A stretch of DNA of 56,625 nucleotides from an uncultured Anaerolineales bacterium (GCA_964573815.1 CAZNMJ010000001.1:1-56625); one strand, 5' to 3'; positions 1-45,046 are shown, counted from the stretch's first letter. The notes: a model not told the origin generated them from the sequence alone. A program made the numbers and translations.

Positions 1-55
1 TGCCATCCCCCCATGACCTTCTCGGCCACGAGGCTACGCAGCTCTTCGGGTGTCG
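1..55. repeat. Terminal direct repeat, left copy (identical to 56571..56625). Indicates a circular or circularly permuted genome, or an assembly overlap.
   Basis: Read directly: tgccatccccccatgaccttctcggccacgaggctacgcagctcttcgggtgtcg is present at both ends of the window. A minus-strand ORF is continuous across the junction. Confidence 0.95.
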
Positions 56-59
56 TCAT
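1..59 (-). CDS. 5' end (ATG at 59..57) of the junction-spanning gene whose body is 56300..56625. Partial in this linear view.
   Basis: Hand translation from 59 gives MTTPEELRSLVAEKVMGGW..., identical to and continuous with the ORF at 56300..56599. GGAGGG lies 4 nt upstream of the ATG. Confidence 0.7.
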   Translation of the reverse strand, partial: MTTPEELRSLVAEKVMGGW

Positions 60-69
60 CACGCCCTCC

Positions 70-360
70 TCACTTCCAGTGCTGCTCAGAATAGTACGGG
101 CGGTGTATGCGTGCGGGCCACAACCACCCCCGATTCTCCTCCGCTTTGCTTCTCTGAGCGTGACGCCGCATTGCCATCGCTGCGGACAAGGCGGCACATA
201 GCTCGTCCACGCTACACCGGATCGTTATCTCACAGCCCATCGCCACGATGCGAACATCTACCCTTCCATATTCCGCATAATCATAGGGCGTCACGAGAAG
301 CGTCGCGCTATCCTCTTCTTCCTCACAATCGGGCACGTAGCCCTGTATCTGAATTTTCAT
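70..360 (-). CDS. Hypothetical protein (96 aa)
   Basis: ATG at 360 is preceded by GGAGGGGG. The gene packs tightly against its neighbours. No recognisable motif. Confidence 0.6.
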   Translation of the reverse strand: MKIQIQGYVPDCEEEEDSATLLVTPYDYAEYGRVDVRIVAMGCEITIRCSVDELCAALSAAMAMRRHAQRSKAEENRGWLWPARIHRPYYSEQHWK

Positions 361-371
361 CTACCCCCTCC

Positions 372-512
372 TCACGTCTCGTGCGGACCATAGAACTCAA
401 TCTCAATCCAAAAAGGCCCTAAATCTAGCACGAATCTGAGTCCAGAGAACCACAGTATTGCGAAGCCTATTGAGAACTGCCACCAGTTCGCGCCATATCG
501 GAACGTCATCAT
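372..512 (-). CDS. Small hydrophobic protein (46 aa, below the ORF-track cutoff)
   Basis: Hand translated: MMTFRYGANWWQFSIGFAILWFSGLRFVLDLGPFWIEIEFYGPHET. A GAGGAGGG SD lies just upstream. Its TGA stop lies inside the same 16-nt stop-SD cassette seen at 514..529. Confidence 0.45.
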   Translation of the reverse strand: MMTFRYGANWWQFSIGFAILWFSGLRFVLDLGPFWIEIEFYGPHET

Positions 513-571
513 GCCCTCCTCACGTCTCGCGGCGGCAACGTCACGACGCAGACCAGCTACGGCCCCCTCGT

Positions 572-594
572 GGTTGAAGGCGGGCCCTTCAACC
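572..594 (-). terminator. 9-bp perfect hairpin (GGTTGAAGG-cgggc-CCTTCAACC) just downstream of the stop of 621..1154. No U-tract.
   Basis: Inverted repeat read directly. Without a T-run it is only a weak terminator or RNA-stability candidate. Confidence 0.25.
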
Positions 595-620
595 GCTGGC
601 TCTCCAGGACGGTGCGCATC

Positions 621-1154
621 TCATGTCGCCTTCCGTGCCGCTGGATCTTCGAGCAGCCGATAGCCAGCCGCAAGCCGTTGCGTCATCTCTCGCACTTCAG
701 GTAGCATCTTGGCTTGTCGCATGTCCCGACGAAGGATACTCTCATACGCCTGGTAGAAGCGCGCTCGATCCGCCACGATGTTCTCACTCAGGCACACATG
801 ACGCCAGCCACCGATCCCCTGCAAGGCTCTATTGATGGCAGGCGTAGAGAAGCTAGGTCGATGCAGCGCGTCGTGAGTAGAGATGGCTCCGATAACCTCC
901 GCCCAAGCGTCGTAAGCACTGGGGGCGTATCTCGCACCCGTGAATATCTCGAAACAGCGGTCCCGCAACTCGGCCACCGAGGGGAAGAACTTGTTGGTCG
1001 TGATGCAATCCTTAGCCGCTGCCTCCAGAACTTGCTCAGGCACGTCATGGAAGGCCATCACGTAGACCTCCACGGTTTGCTCGCGCAGCTCGAAATGAGG
1101 ATAGGCCGCGGCAAGCAGGCCACAAGTCTTCGCCACGAATCCCTTTTCAGCCAT
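621..1154 (-). CDS. Helicase-loader-like replication protein (G39P-like domain)
   Basis: The internal ATG at 1154 overlaps the upstream stop (ATGGCTGA). The pattern LLAAAYPHF...VEVYVMAFHDVP...TNKFFPSVAELR resembles the SPP1 G39P loader/inhibitor domain (expected PF11417). It lies directly after the initiator gene. Confidence 0.6.
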   Translation of the reverse strand: MAEKGFVAKTCGLLAAAYPHFELREQTVEVYVMAFHDVPEQVLEAAAKDCITTNKFFPSVAELRDRCFEIFTGARYAPSAYDAWAEVIGAISTHDALHRPSFSTPAINRALQGIGGWRHVCLSENIVADRARFYQAYESILRRDMRQAKMLPEVREMTQRLAAGYRLLEDPAARKAT

Positions 1155-1935
1155 TCTTCTCGGCCTCCAGTTTCTCAAGATAGGATCGCACGCCGGCGAA
1201 CCCCCGCGGTTCGTCACCCTGTGGTCGGCGCTTGCTCTTGGTCATCGCCTGAATGTAGGCGAGGATGTCACCCGTAGGGGGTTTCGTCGTGAGGTGCCAC
1301 ATCAGTTCGGCCAGTCGCCCCGCCCCACCAACCTGCTTCGCCACTTTGCCGAGATAGCCGTATGCTGGTTGGTCGCCGTCCGCGCCGAAACAGAGAGTGT
1401 ATATGCGCTTCAGGAACGCTGGCCGGTTGGCCGTGCTTTTGAGAGTGTCCAACAGGTCTCGGAAGGCATCAGAGAGGCAGGTTTTTGCACTTCTCTGCCC
1501 CGAAGGGTATTCATAGTCTTGTAGTTTTATAGTTATAGAGGGAATACACAAATCTGCACTTCTCTCTGCACTTCTCTCTGCACTTCTGATATGTAAAGAG
1601 GCAACATCCTGCACTTCACTTCTGGAATCCAACCACTCCTCACGGGTGCGCCAGTTCGACACCTCAATCTCCAGATGATGAGGGAACCGTGCCCGTCTAT
1701 GTATGTACCCGGCCTTTTGGAGTGAGCTGAACCATGATTTGATAGTGCGGATCGAGCGCCCCAGTATTTGCGCCGCCTCCAGGTGGGTGTAGTCTATGAC
1801 GCCTCCTTCCCGCGCGACCCACGCGCGCGCCAATATCCACAAATAGAGCCAGATGGCCGGCCCCATGCGGCGGACGTGCTTCGCCTCGATTAGCCCCTCG
1901 AACACGGGGAAATACCAGCGTGAGCCTTCAGTCAT
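1147..1935 (-). CDS. Replication initiator / replisome-organiser-like winged-helix protein (lambda O-like role)
   Basis: HTH-like segment LEAAQILGRSIRTIKSWFSSLQKAGYI. Iterons and an AT-rich tract lie inside the gene (the encoded peptide shows SAERSAERSA). It is followed by a loader-like gene. Confidence 0.6.
   Translation of the reverse strand: MTEGSRWYFPVFEGLIEAKHVRRMGPAIWLYLWILARAWVAREGGVIDYTHLEAAQILGRSIRTIKSWFSSLQKAGYIHRRARFPHHLEIEVSNWRTREEWLDSRSEVQDVASLHIRSAERSAERSADLCIPSITIKLQDYEYPSGQRSAKTCLSDAFRDLLDTLKSTANRPAFLKRIYTLCFGADGDQPAYGYLGKVAKQVGGAGRLAELMWHLTTKPPTGDILAYIQAMTKSKRRPQGDEPRGFAGVRSYLEKLEAEKNG
1486..1619. repeat. Putative origin of replication: five TGCACTTC(T/A)C iterons (starts 1486, 1555, 1567, 1579, 1610) around an AT-rich tract (1511..1552)
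   Basis: Three copies are exact 12-bp tandem units (1555..1590). The AT-rich stretch tcatagtcttgtagttttatagttatagagggaatacacaaat stands out in a GC-rich gene. Confidence 0.6.
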
Positions 1936-1941
1936 TGCGCG

Positions 1942-1989
1942 TCACATATCGGCCCACATCTTGGTGTAGATGCGCCGGTAGATGGCCAT
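1942..1989 (-). CDS. 15-codon upstream ORF (MAIYRRIYTKMWADM) in frame with the initiator gene, separated from its ATG by TGA-CGC-GCA
   Basis: Hand translated. A GAGGG SD lies 8 nt upstream of ATG 1989, whereas ATG 1935 has no SD. The motif IYTKMWAD resembles the usual N-terminus of phage replisome-organiser proteins. Confidence 0.35.
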   Translation of the reverse strand: MAIYRRIYTKMWADM

Positions 1990-1992
1990 AGT

Positions 1993-2805
1993 CTAGCCCT
2001 CGCTTTGCTCTTCAGGTATGGGCACTGGTTCGTTACCTAAGAAGTCCTCAGCCGGATACAGGTGGGAATGCCCCAACTTCTCGATGACATAGGGCAGTCG
2101 TATAGGATAGCCCTCAATGAGTCGCCATTTCTCCCAGAAGTGAGACAGGAACAGCTTGACCATCACACGTCGCGCGTCGTAGTGCATCCGTAGCGGTGGC
2201 CAGTCTTTCGGGTCTCGTGTGGCGGCAGTGTAGGCTCTCCGGTCATCGTAGACGCGCCGGTAGGCACCGTTGGCCCGGAGCATAGAACTGCCGATGTGTT
2301 CCAGGCAAATGGCCTTGAGCCGTCCGTTGTAGCTGGCCCTCTCGCCCTTGATCCGCTTGAGGCCCGGCTTGAGGCCCGCAAAGTGCCAGAGGCTACTCAC
2401 CGTCCTGAAGGCCCCAATACCCGTAGGCTTGATCTCATTCCCCCGTGCCTTGATCCAGTCTTGGTCTTGCTTCGTCTTTAGGCTTTTGGTGACGATCCGA
2501 TTGTGGGTCATATTGACCGGGCCGATCTCGCCCAGGAGTTGGGCCAAGCCAAGTTTGCCCACCCCACGCACCTCGCTTAGCCAGTCAATCCAGAGGGGAT
2601 GCGGAGTCACAGCCAACTCCACGCTTTTCTTGATGCTCTTCTCGACGGCGAATAGGCCCTCATACCATGCCTCATCCCGTTCCGTGTTCCGTTGCGATCT
2701 TCCCTGCTCCTTGGACCGGATGCGTTCTCCGATGCCGAGGCGCAGTTTTTGCACCTGGCGGTAGAGTTTCGCGTCTTGGCTCAGCCCGACGTAGTCGTAG
2801 TTCAT
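1993..2805 (-). CDS. Protein resembling the C-terminal Tnp/HhH domain of IS110-family recombinases, without the N-terminal DEDD RuvC-like domain
   Basis: VRGVGKLGLAQLLGEIGPV...FRTVSSLWHFAGLKPGLKRIKGERASYNGRLKAICLE matches the Transposase_20 pattern (expected PF02371). The N-terminal ~80 aa look coiled-coil only. The start at 2805 has a strong SD (GAAAGGAGACGC-ATG). The longer ORF-track start at 2931 has none. Confidence 0.5.
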   Translation of the reverse strand: MNYDYVGLSQDAKLYRQVQKLRLGIGERIRSKEQGRSQRNTERDEAWYEGLFAVEKSIKKSVELAVTPHPLWIDWLSEVRGVGKLGLAQLLGEIGPVNMTHNRIVTKSLKTKQDQDWIKARGNEIKPTGIGAFRTVSSLWHFAGLKPGLKRIKGERASYNGRLKAICLEHIGSSMLRANGAYRRVYDDRRAYTAATRDPKDWPPLRMHYDARRVMVKLFLSHFWEKWRLIEGYPIRLPYVIEKLGHSHLYPAEDFLGNEPVPIPEEQSEG

Positions 2806-2829
2806 GCGTCTCCTTTCGCGCTCGTGACC

Positions 2830-3360
2830 TGGCTCTCGCTTCTCCGATGGCTCGCGCGTCGAGGCTGGATCTTGATCCTCCTGTGGCTCGCGTCGGTGGA
2901 GTGGGTCTCGCTTGTGCCATGGCTCGCGCATGGGTGGTAGGTCTCGCAGGGATGCTGGCTCGCGCTTGCGTCATGGGTTTCGACTTTGGTTTGGCTCGCG
3001 CCCCGCCCATGGGTCTCGCCCTCAGCCTGGCTCGCGCTATGGACATGGATCTCACTCGCTCCTTGGCTCGCGCTCTCCACCTGGGTCTCGCATGCCGGGT
3101 GGCTCGCGCGGCGCATTTGGGTCTCGCGTTCACCTTGGCTCGCACGCGCATCGTGGGTCTCGCCGACAGTATGGCTCGCGCTTGTTGTTTGGGTCTCCCC
3201 AACTACATGGCTCGCGCATCGAGGCTGGATCTCGCGCTCGCAATGGCTCGCGCCGCCCAAATGGGTCTCGCATTTGACATGGCTCGCGCGCGGGGTTTGG
3301 GTCTCACGCCCGTCGTGGCTCGCGCTCGATGCTTGGGTCTCGCGGCCCCTGTGGCTATTC
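2830..3360. repeat. Phased repeat array: 30 nine-bp cores every 18 bp, alternating A = TGGCTCGCG and B = TGGGTCTCG (15 units of 36 bp), with unrelated 9-bp spacers
   Basis: Core starts read directly at 2830, 2848, 2866, 2884 ... 3334, 3352, all exactly 18 bp apart with no indel. B variants include TGGATCTTG, TAGGTCTCG, TGGGTTTCG, TGGATCTCA and TGGGTCTCC. Confidence 0.9.
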
Positions 3361-3882
3361 GTCCAACTCCTCGGCCACCCGCATCACGGTCTCGCAGAAC
3401 GCTTTGGCCTCGTCGATTGCGCCACAGTCGTTGGCGACCAGGCGCGCCAAGGCCCGGCGGATGTGCCCGATGCACTGATTCTGAAGATAGTTGCGCGCGG
3501 CTCTCGTCCCGTTCTCGGAGTCACCGTCCACCAAGCCGTCATTACCGTCGGCGGGATACGCCTTGTAGCGAGCGAGTACAGTCTCATGCTCCTGCCCACT
3601 GGAGTCGTGTGATTTGCGAATGAGTTCATCCAGCGGTGATACCCGCCGAAACCGCTGATAAATGCCCTCCGCAAGCTCCGTCTTGGCCGTGGGATCGAAT
3701 ACCTGCTCTTCGACGGCTCCGGCCCGTTGCCTCACGAAGTAGAACTGGCTCATCTCACGCGCCGTCCGTTTCGTCTCGGCACCGACGCGATAAGCGTCAC
3801 GCGAGTTGGCGAACTCCAGTTCGGCGTCCTTGTCGGCCTCCATCCAATCCGAGATGTCGATCACGACCTCATTGTCAAGCAT
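3355..3882 (-). CDS. Hypothetical protein (175 aa)
   Basis: The internal ATG at 3882 has AGGAGG-taag upstream and abuts the upstream stop at 3884. No recognisable motif. Confidence 0.6.
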   Translation of the reverse strand: MLDNEVVIDISDWMEADKDAELEFANSRDAYRVGAETKRTAREMSQFYFVRQRAGAVEEQVFDPTAKTELAEGIYQRFRRVSPLDELIRKSHDSSGQEHETVLARYKAYPADGNDGLVDGDSENGTRAARNYLQNQCIGHIRRALARLVANDCGAIDEAKAFCETVMRVAEELDE

Positions 3883-3883
3883 C

Positions 3884-4186
3884 TTACCTCCTGTCTTGAT
3901 TCTGTGTGTTCCCAAACACTCTCCGCGTGTCCTTCGCCGACCACCTTCTCTCTGGCTTACCCCGGTTCTTGCGCCCCCCGGGGACCCAAAAGGCGTCGCG
4001 CCATCCATCCGCTACCATCGCGCTGACCATCTGACCGAAGGCTTGGGTGCGGGCCACCTTCGCCGTCTTCCCGGTGAGGATAACGCCCGGCAGTTCGACC
4101 TCCTTGAACAGAGGCCCTTCGCTCTTGGCTTCGGCGATGTTCTCAGGAGATGTGAGTTCGCGTGCCACGATGACGGTTATGGACAT
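3884..4186 (-). CDS. Hypothetical protein (100 aa)
   Basis: ATG at 4186 with a GGAGG SD. Coding-like composition. No motif recognised. Confidence 0.6.
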   Translation of the reverse strand: MSITVIVARELTSPENIAEAKSEGPLFKEVELPGVILTGKTAKVARTQAFGQMVSAMVADGWRDAFWVPGGRKNRGKPERRWSAKDTRRVFGNTQNQDRR

Positions 4187-4203
4187 TCAATCCTCCGATG
4201 CTA

Positions 4204-4902
4204 TCATTCGCATGATATTAGTGTGCCCTGCTCAACGTTGATCCCCGGCAGGGGCGGCTGGGTCTCGCGCACCCGCCGGCGGGCCGTCTCCGCCACGTCG
4301 GGGTCGATCTCGAAGGCGAGGTAGCGACGGCCCAGCATCTTGCACACGGCGGGGACGGTGCCGCCGCCACAAAAAGGATCGAGAATGACAGAATCGGGAT
4401 TAGACAATTTGCCAATATAATAAGCAAAAAACCCCTCACCTTGTCCCCATTTATGGAAGAGTTTGCTATATTCCATTTGTGATTTAGTGCTCGTATAGGA
4501 ATCAAGGATAAAGGAACCGTTTCCAGCCCCCGTCTTCGAGAATGTGAGGCAAGGTTTCCATGTTACCCACAATCGCTTTTGAAACATGGCCGCGTTCTTC
4601 TGTGGATGATGGTATGCAATCAGCCAATGAAACTTGATTACTCCATCTACTGCAATCAGGATATCAGCCACAAAAGCGTGGCCCGCCAAAGTCAGTATCA
4701 TGCCCTTTGACTGCAATACCCTCGCCCCCGTCTCCGCCAGCCACCGATAATCCTCGATCTTCTGGTACACTGGATCTGTGAAGATCAAGTCCACCGACTC
4801 GTCGGGGACGGCCTTCGCCAGCTCCCGCGCGTCCCCCGTGTATATGCCTTCATGCTCCCCGCCAGGGCCAAGCTCATAAGGACCTAGTGTTTCTATCATC
4901 AT
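4204..4902 (-). CDS. DNA methyltransferase (N6-adenine/N4-cytosine type, beta-class motif order)
   Basis: Motif IV-like FTDPVY near the N-terminus and motif I ILDPFCGGGTVPAVCKMLGRRYLAFEID near the C-terminus (expected PF01555). The start overlaps the HNH stop (ATGATGA). Confidence 0.8.
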   Translation of the reverse strand: MMIETLGPYELGPGGEHEGIYTGDARELAKAVPDESVDLIFTDPVYQKIEDYRWLAETGARVLQSKGMILTLAGHAFVADILIAVDGVIKFHWLIAYHHPQKNAAMFQKRLWVTWKPCLTFSKTGAGNGSFILDSYTSTKSQMEYSKLFHKWGQGEGFFAYYIGKLSNPDSVILDPFCGGGTVPAVCKMLGRRYLAFEIDPDVAETARRRVRETQPPLPGINVEQGTLISCE

Positions 4903-5609
4903 TGAGCAATTCTCTCTCTGTACTGCCGAAACTGTAGCCTCGTGTTCAATCCATAACCGAACATGTTATGAAATCTCCTATGATGTCTCCGACACAATGT
5001 CAGGCCGTTGTTTGAATCAAATCGCCGTCCTGGGTTGTCTCCCCAAGATTCGAGGTGATGTGCACAAATTCGCCTATTTGTGTGGCAAATCGTACACCGA
5101 AACCCATCCCTTCTGAATACTTGGATGCGCCAATCGAGATATTTGGCGAGCGTCCTGCCAATTTGTCCTCCTGTCCACCGGGGATGATCCTCACCAATCT
5201 GGTGTTTGTTCAAGGCATGGAATGTCTTTGCTGCCGCCTCTTTTTGAATACATCCACAGCTTAGGCTCTTCCCAGCCGTTAGGCTATTAGTGAGAATCTC
5301 CTTGGTATTCCCACAATCGCACAAACAAAGCCAGAGAATGTTTCCGCCTTGGCGGATTCCAGAATCTTCAATAACAACTAGTCGCCCGAATCTCTGCTTG
5401 GTCAAATCTCTATACGCCCATTCGCCACGCAGACATCCACAACTGTTGGTCCTACCTCCCGTTAGGCAGGAAGTTCTAACTAGCGTTGTATTCCCACAAT
5501 CGCACTTGCACTTCCACAAGACCACACCGCTTGCGTCACGCTCGCCACTGTCTTCAATGGCAAGAAGGCGTCCGAAGTGCTTTCCTGTGAGGTTTTTCTT
5601 ACCACTCAT
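4899..5609 (-). CDS. HNH endonuclease with duplicated Cys-rich N-terminal repeats
   Basis: C-terminal CAHHLESW...NGLTLCRRHH HNH motif. Two copies of GRL..IEDSG....W.C.CDCGN....L..G...SCGC, typical of phage HNH homing-type enzymes. Confidence 0.8.
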   Translation of the reverse strand: MSGKKNLTGKHFGRLLAIEDSGERDASGVVLWKCKCDCGNTTLVRTSCLTGGRTNSCGCLRGEWAYRDLTKQRFGRLVVIEDSGIRQGGNILWLCLCDCGNTKEILTNSLTAGKSLSCGCIQKEAAAKTFHALNKHQIGEDHPRWTGGQIGRTLAKYLDWRIQVFRRDGFRCTICHTNRRICAHHLESWGDNPGRRFDSNNGLTLCRRHHRRFHNMFGYGLNTRLQFRQYRERIAQ

Positions 5610-5664
5610 TGCAGATTCTCGGGCGTGTCGTTGGGGCCCAGGAGGTAGGGGCCGAGGCGGTCGC

Positions 5665-5742
5665 TCACCGCCCCCTCCTCGCCCTGGCCCTGCTCCTGCG
5701 CTTCTTGGCGCGGCGGGCCTTGTGGCGTTGTTCTTCGGTCAT
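5665..5742 (-). CDS. Arg/Lys-rich 25-aa micro-ORF (MTEEQRHKARRAKKRRSRARARRGR)
   Basis: Hand translated. Its ATG overlaps the radical SAM gene stop (ATGA). Very short, so weakly supported. Confidence 0.25.
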   Translation of the reverse strand: MTEEQRHKARRAKKRRSRARARRGR

Positions 5743-6563
5743 GGCTTCCTCATCTCCGCGAACATCGCTGCTGGCCGTGACCAGGTTCTGTTCAGCGCGC
5801 GCCATCCGCGACCATATTTAGGGCCACCGTCAAAATCTCGGTACAACTGGGAAAAGGGCAAACAGCCAATCCGCCAAACGGCCCGCAACCGTTCCTCCGC
5901 CTGAGCCAGGGATTCCTCCAATCCTATCATCACGTAGCAACGCAACTGTCGGCGCGTCAGGAATGGGACACGCCGAACAGCGTCACGTAGCGGACCCAAA
6001 GATTCTCTCGTGTCGGCGGCGAAGAACACTTGGGAGATCGGGATGGTCGCCAATTCCTTGGCAGTCCAATCGGTGAACAGCCGCGAATCCAAGCCTCCGG
6101 AAAAGGTAACTTTGCGACCCTGCTCTCGCAGCATGGCAAATACGGCTTTCTGATGAGCGCGAGAACAGGCCAGGATGTTGTTATCCTGCAAGATCCAACC
6201 CTCTCGAATCGGCAGCAACCTGATCTTGCCCTCGCGTTCGGGCACGAAGCACCAGGGGCAACTCCTCGGACAGCCGCGACTGGTGATCGTAACGCCCCTC
6301 TGAAGATACATACCGGGCCGGAACTCGCCATCGTCAGGTCCTATCGCAGGCCCCCCCAACTTGACGACGGGGTAATACTGGCCCCATGCTCCCGCCAAGC
6401 GCCGACCGTCCGCTATGTCCCATGTGAACGTAACCGAAAGGTGCACCTCTTCCGCCTCTGGCCTCCATAGCGGCGGCTCGCCCACGAAGGCCATCTCATC
6501 CCGTGGCGTCATGCTTGTGCGCCTGGGGAAGACTCTGATTATGGGATGCGCCGATTCGGTCAT
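5739..6563 (-). CDS. Radical SAM protein, function unknown
   Basis: CX3CX2C cluster motif TSRGCPRSCPWCFVP. GGAGG SD before ATG 6563. Confidence 0.7.
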   Translation of the reverse strand: MTESAHPIIRVFPRRTSMTPRDEMAFVGEPPLWRPEAEEVHLSVTFTWDIADGRRLAGAWGQYYPVVKLGGPAIGPDDGEFRPGMYLQRGVTITSRGCPRSCPWCFVPEREGKIRLLPIREGWILQDNNILACSRAHQKAVFAMLREQGRKVTFSGGLDSRLFTDWTAKELATIPISQVFFAADTRESLGPLRDAVRRVPFLTRRQLRCYVMIGLEESLAQAEERLRAVWRIGCLPFSQLYRDFDGGPKYGRGWRALNRTWSRPAAMFAEMRKP

Positions 6564-7970: not shown

Positions 7971-8435
7971 TCATTCCCCCCACAAATGCACCATCGCCAC
8001 CCTCACTACGCCCATCTCCACCGACTCGCCCTTGACCTTGACCAGGCGCAGCACCGTGTCCTCCCACAGCAAGGCCCAGTTGAACGGCGGATGCCATTTG
8101 ATGGCCAGCACGTACACGCCGTCCTCCACCCCCTCGAAGGCGAAGCGCCCCTCGGCGTCAGTTCTCGCGTGCGGCGAGTCCGAGTTGTGGCGGAAGATGA
8201 GGAAGGGATCCTCGCTTATCACCTCTAGCAACGCGAACCGGCGGTTGGCCACCGGCCCGAAGTCCTCTTCCCACCTGGCCTGCCCCGTAACGGTGGGAGT
8301 GCGCCCGTGCCCGCCGCGAATGAGGGCGAGGTATACCGTGTCGGCGCGGGCTGAGCTACCCAGGAGGAGAGTCAAGGCGAGGGCTGTGAGTACGACGACG
8401 CGCCACCTCCGCCCGCCGAGCAGGTCGTCGGTCAT
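7971..8435 (-). CDS. Secreted protein with a carboxypeptidase-regulatory-like (Ig/beta-sandwich) segment
   Basis: Signal-peptide-like RRWRVVVLTALALTLLLGSSARA. TDAEGRFAFEGVEDGVYVL is the typical CarboxypepD_reg-type motif. Confidence 0.55.
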   Translation of the reverse strand: MTDDLLGGRRWRVVVLTALALTLLLGSSARADTVYLALIRGGHGRTPTVTGQARWEEDFGPVANRRFALLEVISEDPFLIFRHNSDSPHARTDAEGRFAFEGVEDGVYVLAIKWHPPFNWALLWEDTVLRLVKVKGESVEMGVVRVAMVHLWGE

Positions 8436-19528: not shown

Positions 19529-21010
19529 ATGTTTCGCGCTCTGATAGTAGCCGCCGTCTCCACCGGCGCACAGGCATCCGAAGAGAAGTATTCGCTCCCC
19601 CAGCAGATCGAGGCTTGTAGCGAAGTCTGCGAGGCCCGAGGCTGGCGCATCGTGGGCACGATTCAGATACGCGGCCACTCCCGCTACTACAACTGGCTGC
19701 ACGAGATCATCCGTGACTGCCCAGAGTATGGGGAGATGGTCTCGCTCATCGAGGGCAGCCGCATAGACCTGGTGGTGGTGCGCGACTATGACCGCCTCTG
19801 GCGCACCGACGCGCTCCGCGCCCAGGTCGCGGCCCTATGCCGCGAGCACGGCGTGCAGGTATTCTCGCTCAACCAGCCCGTCGAACCGGAGGACCCGGCC
19901 CACCTCCAAGACTCCACCGATTCTCGCCTCATCGTCGAAGCACTCTCCGGCATCATTGGCCAGCAGGAGAACCGCGCCCGCGTGCGACGCCTTCGCCTGG
20001 GCATGGCTGGGCGCATTCGGCGGGGGCTGCACCATTCCGGCGGCTATCCGCCCTACGGCTACCGACGCGACGGCGAAGGCTTGCTCATGCCGGATGAGGA
20101 AGAGGCCCCCTGGCTGAGGCAGATCTTCCAGCGCTACTTGGCCGGGCGAGGCATGAGGGGGATCGCCCAGGAGTTGACCGATATGGGCATCCCACCCCCT
20201 GGCGTCAAGCGCCCCACGATCCCCAATGCGGTGGGTTACTGGCGCTACCAGTCCGTGGGCGACATCCTCCGCAACCCGGTCTATAAGGGGGAGGCTTACT
20301 GGGGAGAGTTTCACAATCCGGACGGTCAACACCAAGCCCTGGTGGAAGCGGGGGACTTTGACCGCGTGCAGACGATCCTCAGCGAGCGAGGGCGGTTCCG
20401 GGACAGGCCCCAAGACGCAGAACGTGTGCTGCGCGGGTTGCTGCGCTGCGATTTCTGTGACCATGCCATGAGCTATCTACGCCTAGGCGGACGCCTGTAC
20501 TTACGATGTGGACTCTATGGGAGCACCAGCGGGAGGCGCTGCCAGTGCAACGGGCACACAGCCCACAGGGTTCATGGCTACGTATTGGCGCAGGTCCAGC
20601 AGCTCCTCCGAGATCCTGAAGAGTTCCTGCACATACGCGAGGAGGAACGCCAGAGTGAGGAGGCAAGGAGCGAATTGGAGGCCATAGACCGCCAACTCGC
20701 CGAGGCTGATCGCCGCTACGCACGTTGGAACCTTCTCTACGAGGAGGAGAAGATCAACGCTGACGAGCTATTGATGCACCGCCAGCGCGTCCACGGTCGG
20801 ACGGACCGCCTCCAGTCACAGAGAGACGAGCTACTAGGCCAAGTGGCTGACGAGACCCGCTTCAAGGAGGTGCTCGCCGATCTGAGCGAACTGGTTGGCC
20901 AAGTGGCTGACATGCCCTCCGATGAGCTGCGAGAGTTGATCTACGCGCCTCTGATCCGCCGGGTGGTTCTCAAGCGCGGGTCCCTTCCCCGGGTTGTATG
21001 GTGGCTATAG
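19529..21010 (+). CDS. int: Large serine recombinase (integrase)
   Basis: N-terminal resolvase fold ALIVAAVSTGAQASEEKYSLPQQ (catalytic Ser region). Recombinase domain GGYPPYGYRRD. Zn-ribbon CDFCDHAM...LRCG...RRCQCNGH. C-terminal coiled coil. Confidence 0.85.
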   Translation: MFRALIVAAVSTGAQASEEKYSLPQQIEACSEVCEARGWRIVGTIQIRGHSRYYNWLHEIIRDCPEYGEMVSLIEGSRIDLVVVRDYDRLWRTDALRAQVAALCREHGVQVFSLNQPVEPEDPAHLQDSTDSRLIVEALSGIIGQQENRARVRRLRLGMAGRIRRGLHHSGGYPPYGYRRDGEGLLMPDEEEAPWLRQIFQRYLAGRGMRGIAQELTDMGIPPPGVKRPTIPNAVGYWRYQSVGDILRNPVYKGEAYWGEFHNPDGQHQALVEAGDFDRVQTILSERGRFRDRPQDAERVLRGLLRCDFCDHAMSYLRLGGRLYLRCGLYGSTSGRRCQCNGHTAHRVHGYVLAQVQQLLRDPEEFLHIREEERQSEEARSELEAIDRQLAEADRRYARWNLLYEEEKINADELLMHRQRVHGRTDRLQSQRDELLGQVADETRFKEVLADLSELVGQVADMPSDELRELIYAPLIRRVVLKRGSLPRVVWWL

Positions 21011-42043: not shown

Positions 42044-42610
42044 CTAAAGTAGTTTCCCTACCCATGCCATTCTTCGGTGATGGCTTCGACAATCCATTGG
42101 CCGCAATGTGTCGGGATCAAGTTCGAACTTCAGAATCGCCAATAACTTTTCTACATCTATTTTCATTCTGTCCCAGCGAATCCATTCGGAGTCTTCTGGT
42201 CCTTGTCCCGAAAATTGCAAAAGATGATTGCCAAAGTGCCTTACCCACACCCTACACCGATTCATTTTGGAGTAAACTCTACATGGGCCTGTTCCATATT
42301 GATACCTTAACTCCTTGGTGGGTGTTTGTCGCCGATTCCTTATTAGTTGGTTCTCAATGAGTATGGTATCGTGTTGGCTTTCTGTAAGATCAGCCCCGTT
42401 GGTTTTGATTTCGATGTTCATCATAAACTGGAAAGCACGGCCTTTCTCGGTGTGAAACTTATGCCAACGCAGATCGTGGTCATTGGCCGTATATCCTACT
42501 TTACTGCGCAGTTCGGGATGATTGCGCACCCAACGCCCAAAGGCCGTTTCTATCGTTACTTCTTTGCCACAGTGTGGACATTCCATACGCTCGTTATATG
42601 CGCGCGTCAT
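42044..42610 (-). CDS. Zn-ribbon plus PD-(D/E)XK-like nuclease candidate (188 aa)
   Basis: CPHCGKE at the N-terminus. HD...(19 aa)...IEIK resembles a D-(D/E)xK motif. Clearly AT-richer than its surroundings. The start overlaps the methyltransferase 3' end by 17 nt. Confidence 0.35.
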   Translation of the reverse strand: MTRAYNERMECPHCGKEVTIETAFGRWVRNHPELRSKVGYTANDHDLRWHKFHTEKGRAFQFMMNIEIKTNGADLTESQHDTILIENQLIRNRRQTPTKELRYQYGTGPCRVYSKMNRCRVWVRHFGNHLLQFSGQGPEDSEWIRWDRMKIDVEKLLAILKFELDPDTLRPMDCRSHHRRMAWVGKLL

Positions 42611-43793
42611 TCACTCGACTCCGAGCGAGGGCCGCGGTTTCGGGATCTGTCTCAAATCCCCAATAGTTGCGATTCAGGCGCTTTGCTGCTATCAAAGTAG
42701 TACCGGAGCCGCAAAAAGGATCGAGCACCAAACCACCTCGCGGGCATAATGAAGCAATAAAATGAGCCGCTTCTGCTTCTGCCTGCTGCCATTCGTGCGA
42801 TTCCTTTTCCTTTCCTCCACTGGTCATATCTGAGAACCAGTTCCACCAAGCTGTAAGTGGTGGTTTGTAGTATGCAAGAACGGGTTTCCATGCATTGTGA
42901 AGATGGTATTTTCTGAATCGAAGCTCACCACCCGTGTGACGGATGGCGAACGTCCACATGTAATCGAGGTGGGAATAGAGAGCGGCATAGATCTCTGGGA
43001 GCGAATGCTGGCCGCTGTAGGCGAGACATATACTGCCTGGTTTCAAGACCCTGGAAGCGAAAAGCGACAATGCCTCATAGAGTTCCAGAGAATCGTCGCT
43101 ATAAGGAGGGTCCGTTAGGATCAGATCAACCGAATCATTCTCTAGCACATCGCCGACTTCCCGGAAATCGCCCTCAACGATGGAAGAGTCCACTGGCGCA
43201 TTCTCGATCATCTCCTGACGTTTCCGAGCCGCCTCTTGCCGCTTTCGCTCCTGATTCGCCACGCGACTGACATGCGCTTGACTGATCTTGAACTCGGCGG
43301 CGATTTCTTCCTGCGTCTTTTCGCCCGCCTCAGCCATCTCAAAGAGGGCCTCTTTCCCCTCCGGCCTCAGTTTCTGGCGAGAATCGGTTGGTCTATACCT
43401 AATACCAACTTTGGTATTAGGTATAGAAAGCCAATAGCCCACAGTTTGTTGCGCCACTCCCAGCAGTTTGCCGATCTCGGTCTGCGTCTTGCCTTCCGCG
43501 TTCAGTTCCAGAGCCACTTCTTTCATCTGCTTACGAAGCGCCGATTTTTGTTCAGGACTAAGATTCCGACGCACGAAGTTAGCTCGATAGGCGAACGCCT
43601 TCTTCTCGGCCTGGGTCAGGCCAGTGATAACGCGCCGTGGGCAATCCGGCTGAATCTTGGCGCGATGGTGCCCGTCTAATATCGCGCCGTCCTCGTCAAC
43701 CCATATCGGGTCTCGGACACCATTGAGATCAATATCCGCCTTCAGGGCCGCAAACTCATCCGTAGAGAGCTCGGGCAAAAGCTCGAAGATCAT
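42594..43793 (-). CDS. ParB-like nuclease domain / HTH / N6-adenine DNA methyltransferase fusion
   Basis: N-terminal GVRDPIWVDEDGAILDGHHR (ParB-N). HTH EIGKLLGVAQQTVGYW. Motif IV LILTDPPY. Motif I VLDPFCGSGTTLIAA. ATG 43793 overlaps the upstream TGA. Confidence 0.8.
   Translation of the reverse strand: MIFELLPELSTDEFAALKADIDLNGVRDPIWVDEDGAILDGHHRAKIQPDCPRRVITGLTQAEKKAFAYRANFVRRNLSPEQKSALRKQMKEVALELNAEGKTQTEIGKLLGVAQQTVGYWLSIPNTKVGIRYRPTDSRQKLRPEGKEALFEMAEAGEKTQEEIAAEFKISQAHVSRVANQERKRQEAARKRQEMIENAPVDSSIVEGDFREVGDVLENDSVDLILTDPPYSDDSLELYEALSLFASRVLKPGSICLAYSGQHSLPEIYAALYSHLDYMWTFAIRHTGGELRFRKYHLHNAWKPVLAYYKPPLTAWWNWFSDMTSGGKEKESHEWQQAEAEAAHFIASLCPRGGLVLDPFCGSGTTLIAAKRLNRNYWGFETDPETAALARSRVNDARI
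43392..43427. repeat. Perfect 36-bp palindrome: 17-bp arms TCTATACCTAATACCAA / TTGGTATTAGGTATAGA around a central CT
   Basis: Read directly. AT-rich. Lies in frame (12 codons, LSIPNTKVGIRY) inside the ParB-methyltransferase gene, just after its HTH. Confidence 0.9.
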
Positions 43794-45046
43794 CACGGAC
43801 CCGCCCTCAGCAATCTCGCCCGCCAGAGGCGTATCTGCTTCTTCGATAGCCACGGCGTGGGGGCATAGATTTGATGCATCTGGGGCCCTACCTTGGGCTG
43901 CTCGGCCAGCCAGCCTTCCTCGCTCGCCAGTCGCCAAAGCTCAGTGCCCGGCTCCGTCGTGCATATCGTCACCTGACACCATTGCACCAATTCCTGCGCA
44001 ACGACCTTCCTGAACCGTTTCTCGGTGTAGGCCAGATCCCGTGGAGTCTCTTTGTAGCTGCCCACCATGAGAAACACCCAGTTCCCGATGCCTGCATCAT
44101 GAGCGAGACGGAGTGAGTGCCAGATATCCTCTTCTGTAGTGCCCTTCTTGATGTCCGCCAACACCTTGTCCGAGAAGGACTCAACACCCCACATGATGGC
44201 CCGACAGCCCGCCTTGCGCATCGTGACCAGCGTTTGCTTATCGTTCCTTACGGAGCAACGCCCCTGGCACTTCCAGGTCAATCCCAACGGCGCGATCTCG
44301 GCGCAGACGCCGCGCAGCCAACCGTTGTGCTTCTCGCCCACGCCCACCAATTCATCGTCGTAAATGAAGACTGAGCGGATGCCCAAGGACTTCAAGTCGG
44401 CCATGTCGGCTTTGATTCTGTCCGCTGGACGCATCCTGATGCGCTGATGTGTGAAGATGGGATTCCCACAGAAGATGCAATCGTGGGGACACCCCCGCGA
44501 CCACATGCTGATACCTTCCGGGTGCCCTATCTTCGGTTGGTTGCCCGCATAGGCGCGTGGCGCGGGCGAATGAGTCCTCCACAATGGGCCCGGGATGTCC
44601 TCGATGGGCATAGGCTTTCCCCGCACCACGTCGCGCCGCCGCTCCCCGAAAATCTCCGCGATGTTGCCCTCGCACTCGCCAACCACTGCCACGTCCGCGC
44701 CCCAATCGAGCTTGGGCTCGGGATCGAGAGTAACATCCGGCCCGCCGACGGCGATATAGCCCTCGTAGCGAGCCTTGTATAACGCTTCGATGCACTCCCG
44801 CGCGCCTCTGCGGTTATGGGACGTGACGGTGAATCCCACGACTTCGGGCTGTGAGGCTGGAGCATCTGCGAACATCGCCCCAAGCCGCCTAGGCGACACC
44901 CCCATTGCCTCCAGGTCCCACACCCGGACCTGATGCCCCGCGTTCTGCAGCACGGCAGCGATGATCGGAAGACCTAGCGCCGGATTCAAGCGATAATGCA
45001 CCTTCGCGTAATGGTGGATGGGCGGATTGAACAAATGGATTTTCAT
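43793..45046 (-). CDS. B12-binding radical SAM enzyme (class B, methylase-like)
   Basis: N-terminal Rossmann-like MKIHLFNPP...LGLPIIAAVLQNAGHQVRVWD. SRGCPHDCIFCGNP (CX3CX2C). Confidence 0.7.
   Translation of the reverse strand: MKIHLFNPPIHHYAKVHYRLNPALGLPIIAAVLQNAGHQVRVWDLEAMGVSPRRLGAMFADAPASQPEVVGFTVTSHNRRGARECIEALYKARYEGYIAVGGPDVTLDPEPKLDWGADVAVVGECEGNIAEIFGERRRDVVRGKPMPIEDIPGPLWRTHSPAPRAYAGNQPKIGHPEGISMWSRGCPHDCIFCGNPIFTHQRIRMRPADRIKADMADLKSLGIRSVFIYDDELVGVGEKHNGWLRGVCAEIAPLGLTWKCQGRCSVRNDKQTLVTMRKAGCRAIMWGVESFSDKVLADIKKGTTEEDIWHSLRLAHDAGIGNWVFLMVGSYKETPRDLAYTEKRFRKVVAQELVQWCQVTICTTEPGTELWRLASEEGWLAEQPKVGPQMHQIYAPTPWLSKKQIRLWRARLLRAGP

Follow-up and report, generated by a model that had tools for sequence, protein, structure and literature searches.

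A probable dual-repeat TIGR array with a nuclease-less TasA in a tailed phage genome from an uncultured Anaerolineales assembly

TIGR-Tas systems, which use guide RNAs to target DNA, became known from phages in 2025 (Faure et al., Science 2025, PMC12045711). Here we analyze a strictly periodic array in a 56,625-nucleotide DNA sequence from an uncultured Anaerolineales bacterium (GCA_964573815.1 CAZNMJ010000001.1:1-56625; the whole of this stretch is called the window below). The array is very likely a dual-repeat TIGR array, and the adjacent downstream gene very likely encodes its effector, a TasA protein without a nuclease domain; we put the probability of this reading at about 93%. The locus is a fresh instance of a kind already described in 2025. 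A first-pass annotation, made from the sequence alone, had picked out the array and knew of no phage element with this architecture, a statement overtaken by the publication of dual-repeat TIGR arrays in that year.

Cutting the region into 18-nt units from position 2830 revealed a period of exactly 18 bp. The array comprises 29 full 10-nt cores, starting at 2830, 2848 and so on up to 3334 with each interval at 18 bp, together with two truncated cores. On the plus strand two cores take turns: TGGCTCGCG in 14 copies, invariant over positions 1-8, and TGGGTCTCG, with close variants, in 15 copies. This bears out the two alternating core types and the spacing noted in the first-pass annotation. The annotation counted 30 cores of 9 nt; 29 are complete, whereas the thirtieth, at 3352, is cut short to TGGCT. 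At the opposite end, 2816..2821 carries another fragment, TCGCGC, and both fragments are of the first core type. A C occupies position 10 in 26 of 29 units, which makes the core 10 nt long rather than 9 and the variable part 8 nt, with an information content of at most 0.3 bits at each of positions 11-18. The pattern TGGSTCKCG occurs 24 times in the window compared to 3.5 +/- 1.9 times in shuffled sequences (none of 100 shuffles reached 24), and 21 of the 24 copies are in phase within the array.

These dimensions agree with the published definition of dual-repeat TIGR arrays, in which two distinct repeats of 8-12 nt alternate with 9-nt spacers in 36-nt units beside a gene for a Nop-domain Tas protein (PMC12045711). 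In the window we found 10-nt repeats, 8-nt spacers, a period of 18/36 bp and 15 units. Read on the minus strand, the two cores become an edge repeat, GCGCGAGCCA (GCG-CGAG-CCA), and a loop repeat, GCGAGACCCA (GCG-AGAC-CCA), which both open with xCG and both carry box C (CCA) at their 3' end. All 15 units keep the register edge(10)-spacerA(8)-loop(10)-spacerB(8), and with a truncated edge repeat at either end there are 16 edge positions enclosing 15 complete units. Published TIGR repeats start with a box D (UG) and end with a box C (CCA) that covaries between edge and loop; edge repeats contain one additional base pair and are truncated at the array ends, loop repeats have a middle that is A-rich and stays unpaired, and dual-repeat precursors are stated to be unstructured (PMC12045711). 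By inspection of the sequence, the edge repeat of the window (G-C-GA-G-CCA) allows the extra C-G pair and the loop repeat (G-A-GA-C-CCA) has an unpairable A/C. The array precursor RNA is likewise not structured (fold z = +1.3), and Rfam had no match for 1900..4300 at E <= 1.

The downstream gene, tasA, supplies the second line of evidence. Its 270-residue product scored 143 bits against the NCBIfam model NF052498 (TIGR_Tas_endo, 'TIGR-Tas system RNA-guided endonuclease'; cut-off 100, E 1.3e-41), and phmmer matched it to TaTasR (PDB 9mty; E 1.4e-15) and to TasH (E 9e-6). An AlphaFold2 model (predicted local distance difference test score, pLDDT, 84.8) is all-helical, and in a Foldseek search of the PDB its best 11 matches were TasR or TasH chains, followed by IS621 and ISCro4 at ranks 12-22. 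Sequence identity to SpTasH and TaTasR is about 18-23%, with Foldseek E-values of 2e-8 to 1e-5. Residue 16 of TasA aligns to residue 122 of TasR, and the alignment is confined to the Nop part of TasR (residues 122-313). Pfam, the TasR alignment and the all-helical model showed neither an HNH nor a RuvC domain ahead of the Nop domain, and we therefore classed the protein as TasA. SpTasH matures its own precursor via Y289 and H296, and the literature reports such a Tyr/His processing dyad as a feature of dual-repeat systems only. Residues Y239 and H246 of the window TasA align with this pair and are invariant in 10 homologs; they are the predicted pre-tigRNA processing dyad.

The first-pass annotation had called the same gene IS110-like and tied the function of the array to it. 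The tie holds. The gene is a Tas homolog, and the array lies on the same strand as tas in all 10 viral loci with a visible tas, and likewise in all close relatives. One of its options, a repetitive RNA upstream of an IS110-like gene, came close to the truth: Tas proteins and IS110 recombinases have a common Nop/RNA-binding domain, and bridge RNAs and tigRNAs are related by evolution (PMC12045711). The part that did not stand is the transposase itself. We rejected TasA as an IS110 transposase on the grounds that it has no DEDD/RuvC domain and that its match to IS621 is weak and covers the Nop-like part only. Pfam gave no match to the protein, hence neither a nuclease nor DEDD_Tnp_IS110 or Transposase_20, and the label 'transposase' comes from PHROG only. 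A search of genome contigs with a TasA profile returned two relatives only, both in archaeal metagenome-assembled genomes.

Searching databases for periodic arrays, a check proposed in the first-pass annotation, proved productive. An exact-pattern search of viral contigs with one A-N9-B pair yielded five loci, and a search for three A cores at 36-bp spacing yielded 30 loci on about 20 viral contigs. Five loci (L006, L009, L010, L015 and L025) were set aside as unrelated simple repeats. In the remaining loci, GCGCGAGCC[A/C/G] alternates with GCGA[G/A]A[A/C]CC[A/C/G] at an 18-nt period over 3 to 21 units, often with several arrays per genome, and the viral contigs with this repeat type span 42-68% G+C. 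The loop repeat of AT-richer relatives is CGAAACCCA, and its middle reads AAAC in L004 and in phage Mvi-JY20. From locus to locus, the final box C base changes in concert in the edge and loop repeats (CCA/CCA, CCC/CCC, CCG/CCG). This shared architecture argues for a conserved family that is oriented and is preserved as nucleotide sequence.

The cultured Microcystis phage Mvi-JY20 contains a TIGR-TasA locus of the same repeat type (L033; PP438412.1 21367..22434; locus 2911..3978). Its tas gene is deposited as XAI95461.1 and labelled 'hypothetical protein'; the array lies downstream of it (locus ~3636..3970), opens with a truncated edge repeat and closes with a hairpin-plus-T-run terminator. XAI95462.1, annotated on the minus strand inside this array, is probably a spurious coding sequence. 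The window array shows that TIGR arrays can be recognized from raw sequence alone, and they still stand unannotated in deposited phage genomes such as that of Mvi-JY20.

Several points weigh against the assignment of the window locus to TIGR-TasA. We found no sigma-70-like promoter on the minus strand within 1900..4300, which would place expression under a promoter further upstream or of non-consensus type. No terminator was found behind the array, as tasA comes directly after it. Base 9 of the spacer slot is a conserved G, so that the functional spacer is 8 or 9 nt, and box D is CG here compared to UG in TasR arrays. Finally, no guide matched the window with one mismatch or fewer in contiguous geometry.

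The last of these points bears on the best surviving alternative, that the locus is a genuine TIGR-TasA system acting on the phage's own genome or life cycle, through self-regulation or by aiding the serine integrase through DNA bending. Gene regulation and integrase assistance were raised as possibilities by Faure et al., a serine integrase at 19529..21010 marks the phage as temperate, and the module sits in the early/replication operon and, in two relatives (L048 and L049), beside a divergent HTH_3 repressor-like gene. We searched both strands of the 56.6-kb window with spacer A followed by the reverse complement of spacer B, with the reverse complement of A followed by B, and with variants containing a gap of 1-2 nt, using all 210 mismatched A/B pairings as controls. 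At 2-4 mismatches, the number of guide matches equaled that of the mismatched-pair controls. The only site with one mismatch (guide 14, 8361..8378, 2-nt gap) lies inside a coding sequence, and 0.14 such sites are expected per 15 guides in that geometry; we rejected it as a target because it is not significant given the several geometries tried. With no match in the window above controls, the guides do not seem to address the phage's own genome, and the spacers of related phages are completely different. We therefore regard a self-acting system as unlikely. In database-size collections hundreds of chance matches are expected for a 16-mer, which is too short for such searches, as the field also says.

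Less probable still is that the array acts as DNA, offering thirty phased sites (centromere-like as in parC/sopC, filament-seeding or titration) to a phage DNA-binding protein. Strict phasing and nucleotide-level conservation of the cores would suit such sites, some large phages have multiple arrays per genome, and TasA loci in the literature are sometimes operonic with ParB-like genes. However, the neighbouring protein is homologous to RNA-binding Tas proteins whose structures were solved with exactly such RNA, the cores bear the box C/D features of tigRNAs, and symmetric DNA sites would not require the co-orientation with tas seen in 10 of 10 loci. An 18-bp period also amounts to 1.7 helical turns, so that successive sites would lie on different faces of the helix, and Pfam and PHROG searches found no ParA, ParB or ParR beside the array. 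The sopC/parC-like reading offered in the first-pass annotation is thus unsupported, as is its decoy array.

We give practically no weight to the remaining alternative, that the array encodes a repeat protein, either of hexapeptide type in an open frame or as an N-terminal REP/RDP extension of the downstream gene. The 18-bp period does equal six codons, and two of the six frames, rather than none, are stop-free over 522 bp (a plus frame reading MARAxxMGLAxx and a minus frame reading xxGASHxxxETQ). An open reading frame (ORF) on the minus strand, 2802..3260, also ends in an ATGA overlap with the start of tasA. With two free codons per unit and 66% G+C in the region, we estimate that two open frames arise by chance with a probability of about 3%. 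Against coding, the open minus frame has its first start codon only at 3260, the open plus frame would overlap both flanking genes antisense, and the start methionine M1 of TasA is the same in all homologs. The REP/RDP frame has six stops, including those at 3304..3306 and 3052..3054 that had been listed before. Six-frame translation and Pfam and PHROG scans of the open array ORFs gave no match, and comparison with homologous arrays rules out a coding repeat: 7 of 10 related arrays (L004, L012, L028, L016, L014, L034 and L008) have stops in all six frames, those of L004, L012 and L028 over 729 bp, and the cores do not change at would-be wobble positions in genomes ranging from 42% to 68% G+C. 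On this comparative evidence the array is judged non-coding and untranslated, as the first-pass annotation had supposed.

By analogy with described TIGR-Tas systems, we can outline how the window's TIGR-TasA locus might work. The minus strand would be transcribed, probably within a long early/replication operon running from a gene of unassigned family upstream of the array (gene X) through the array to tasA; the genes from about 6563 down to 621 are all on the minus strand. A TasA dimer would bind every edge and loop repeat at its two ends, box D (xG) and box C (CCA), and the C-terminal Tyr/His loop of TasA would cut the precursor in each edge repeat to release 15 different 36-nt tigRNAs. The two 8-nt spacers of a tigRNA would pair with opposite strands in the two neighbouring halves of a roughly 16-bp target. 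In the numbering of the TasH structure paper, it is the 3' half of a strand that its spacer pairs with, and by that geometry the target would read spacer A followed by the reverse complement of spacer B. MbTasA is an RNA-guided repressor that blocks transcription; as with MbTasA, and since the window protein has no HNH or RuvC domain, the complex would be expected to bind and bend DNA without cutting it and to block transcription. Guided by its RNAs, it could repress or block the DNA of the host or of rival mobile elements, either in infection or in the lysogenic state. More speculatively, processing at the last truncated edge might define the 5' end of the tasA message and provide an autoregulatory link.

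Comparison with known systems places the locus more precisely. Dual-repeat TIGR-TasA systems, such as that of Flavonifractor plautii (FpTIGR-TasA), have in common with it alternating repeats of about 10 nt, short spacers, a 36-nt unit, truncated edges at both ends, an adjoining co-oriented solo Nop-domain protein and a location in phage. Dual-repeat TIGR-TasA arrays usually have 5-15 units, which puts the 15 units of the window at the top of the range. The spacer slot of FpTIGR contains 9 variable nt whereas that of the window contains 8 variable nt and a fixed G, and box D is UG in these systems but CG here. Unlike in them, the window array lies upstream of tasA, abutting its ribosome-binding site, has no terminator, and fits exactly between the stop codon of gene X and the start of tasA. 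SpTasH (Salicola phage CGphi29; PDB 9w03/9w04) and TaTasR (9mty) share the Nop fold, coiled-coil and Tyr/His dyad with the window TasA, and SpTIGR likewise has 8+8, or 16, variable nt; these proteins carry a nuclease domain (HNH or RuvC) whereas the window TasA has neither, and no DNA cleavage is expected of it.

More distant comparisons set the limits of the class. The IS110 bridge RNA recombinases (IS621, ISCro4) also combine a Nop-like RNA-binding domain with a gene-adjacent guide RNA and bipartite guides, but IS110 has a DEDD/RuvC domain, a two-loop bridge RNA (~150-250 nt), transposon ends and a single guide, whereas the window locus has none of these and many guides. CRISPR and TIGR share a tandem repeat-spacer array, processed guide RNAs and a location on mobile elements. 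A CRISPR array, however, has one repeat of 25-36 nt, in contrast to the two alternating repeats of about 10 nt in the window with 8-9-nt spacers that would pair on both DNA strands, and TIGR has no cas genes, PAM or known adaptation machinery. Among the neighbours of the window array, Pfam, PHROG and PADLOC found no match to cas genes or defence systems, in agreement with the earlier judgement that the array is not CRISPR. In box C/D sRNAs with Nop5, too, a dimer of a Nop-domain protein binds tandem guides flanked by box C/D; they target RNA with a K-turn/L7Ae and fibrillarin, whereas TIGR targets DNA without these.

Gene X lies directly upstream of the array, and searches of its 175-residue product against Pfam, PHROGs, NCBIfam, PADLOC and PDB profiles gave no match. 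Its structure model is confident (pLDDT 90.8) and found no Foldseek match in the PDB or BFVD. A HMMER search of 1.84 billion representatives recovered only nine clusters at 50% identity, with members of 172-186 residues. In all nine, a TIGR array with this type of repeat begins at the stop codon of gene X, mostly as a truncated edge of the TAGCC type, and wherever the contig continues the array is followed by a tasA of the window clade (41-59% identity). The arrangement of gene X stop and truncated edge found in the window recurs in L004, L043, L044, L045 and L047, and the ending GCGCGA, Shine-Dalgarno sequence and ATG recurs in L035, L041, L046 and L049. By tblastn, other neighbours of gene X are not common among the contigs. 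Judged by this conserved order, gene X, array and tasA form a conserved three-part module (Table 1).

Viral contigs yielded no further gene X loci, metagenome contigs returned only a contig already known, and a word-indexed protein search returned only gene X itself. More distant TasA loci (Mvi-JY20; P0010, 33% identity) appear to lack it: tblastn found no gene X in L033, and no gene of similar size was seen upstream of tasA in L050, which was not searched by similarity. We tentatively suggest, at somewhat less than even odds, that gene X encodes an accessory protein that is specific to a single TasA clade, devoted to it, and new to the literature. If it acts with TasA-tigRNA, it could be an effector recruited to bound DNA or a spacer-turnover factor, and thus the missing partner for a nuclease-less TasA. 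In published tasParB-tasA operons a second conserved gene stands beside tasA, with the array sometimes between the two (Faure et al., fig. S14 / methods). The two-gene layout resembles that of gene X and tasA, but gene X has no ParB signature in Pfam, PHROG or NCBIfam, and we rejected it as the ParB-like partner. In two relatives (L048 1090..3508, L049 1007..3425), gene X, array and tasA come right after a small NikA-like gene, itself divergent from an HTH_3 (cI-like) gene, which places the module at a probable lysis/lysogeny switch, in the early rightward-type operon.

Table 1. Features of the TIGR-TasA locus and of its relatives. Positions are those of the window unless a locus is named.
Feature	Position	Strand	Basis or remark
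tasA, 270-aa solo Nop-domain TIGR-associated protein without nuclease domain	1993..2805	-	NCBIfam, phmmer, Foldseek
tasA Shine-Dalgarno sequence AAGGAG	2810..2815	-	ctcctt on + strand, 4 nt before the ATG at 2805; placed at 2805 in the first-pass annotation
Probable dual-repeat TIGR array, 15 tigRNA units of 36 nt	2816..3357	- (sense strand)	periodicity, information content, unit layout
3'-truncated edge repeat GCGCGA	2816..2821	-	abuts tasA ribosome-binding site
Loop repeats GCGAGACCCA and variants, 15	2830..3343; + strand 2830+36k..2839+36k, k=0..14	-	purine/A-rich middle (AGAC), CCA end
Variable 8-nt spacers, 30	2840..3351	-	15 spacer A (after edge), 15 spacer B (after loop)
Edge repeats GCGCGAGCCA, 14 full	2848..3325; + strand 2848+36k..2857+36k, k=0..13	-	box D (xG), extra C-G pair, box C (CCA)
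Spacers of unit 2, as an example	A = 3308..3315, B = 3290..3297	-	unit layout
Duplicated spacer B, units 4 and 14	3218..3225 and 2858..2865	-	loop variants 3226..3235 and 2866..2875
5'-truncated edge repeat TAGCCA	3352..3357	-	its TAG (3357..3355) is the gene X stop codon
Gene X, 175-aa, candidate accessory gene	3355..3882	-	directly upstream of the array in this TasA clade
Gene X homologs	L034 1255..1797; L035 2214..2753; L041 1824..2360		
Gene X homologs	L043 565..1083; L044 145..690; L045 230..748		
Gene X homologs	L046 279..839; L047 598..1152; L048 1848..2399		
Within-array duplicates in relatives	L041 2340..2690; L043 1060..1335		spacer comparison

The spacers also hold traces of how arrays may grow. 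Spacers common to related arrays are not above chance, with 8 near-identical 8-mer pairs compared to 5.5 in shuffles. Three of the eight pairs are within a single array: window units 4 and 14 (GCCTCGAT, GCCTCGAC), AGGATACC twice in L041, and CCAATCAC twice in L043. By our own estimate, about 0.03 exact within-array matches are expected by chance. The stretch common to window units 4 and 14 includes a variant loop ending in GATCCA, which points to duplication of a loop-spacerB-edge segment and not to independent acquisition. This suggests that arrays grow by local duplication of sub-units.

The window encodes a large terminase, portal, head-morphogenesis protein, tape measure and serine integrase, and is apparently a complete 56.6-kb genome of a temperate tailed phage. 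The large serine integrase (plus strand; phrog_95, E 1.4e-80) indicates the temperate lifestyle. A megablast search of INPHARED with positions 1..6000 gave no match. The TIGR module lies among early/replication genes, including those for a DnaD-like protein, a helicase-loader-like protein, a DNA methyltransferase and an HNH protein. As a TIGR-TasA locus it is ordinary but well preserved, and it opens no new category. Its value lies in an apparently complete temperate phage genome with 15 intact guides, since TIGR loci mostly come from metagenomic fragments of short length. The apparent absence of self-targeting guides, the half-guide duplications and the linkage to gene X bear on the natural targets and role of a nuclease-less TasA.

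Two further features of the window are separate from the locus. The DnaD-like gene (1147..1935) contains 2.9 perfect tandem copies of a 12-bp unit, TCTGCACTTCTC, at 1553..1587; this repeat is iteron-like and unrelated to the TIGR array, and the first-pass annotation was right to keep the array apart from the iteron feature near 1550. A 447-residue protein encoded at 42594..43937 on the minus strand has ParB-like and DNA-methyltransferase PHROG matches and contains the only ParB-like domain found. As 39 kb separate it from the TIGR locus, it does not correspond to the tasParB that the literature describes in operons with tasA.

Among the related viral contigs, the 106-kb IMGVR_UViG_3300021560_000014 (L001, L003, L005, L020, L029-L032) contains at least 8 separate TIGR array loci. 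Several TIGR arrays are also found in IMGVR_UViG_3300029288_000001 (225 kb, 42% G+C; L004, L012, L023) and in IMGVR_UViG_3300048592_000962 (L017, L018, L021), and one large phage contig has three arrays of 15-21 units. Some arrays have no tas within the fetched flank, and that of L004 lies between ASCH-like and zinc-finger-like genes; these have the look of scattered or 'orphan' arrays that rely on a tas far away.

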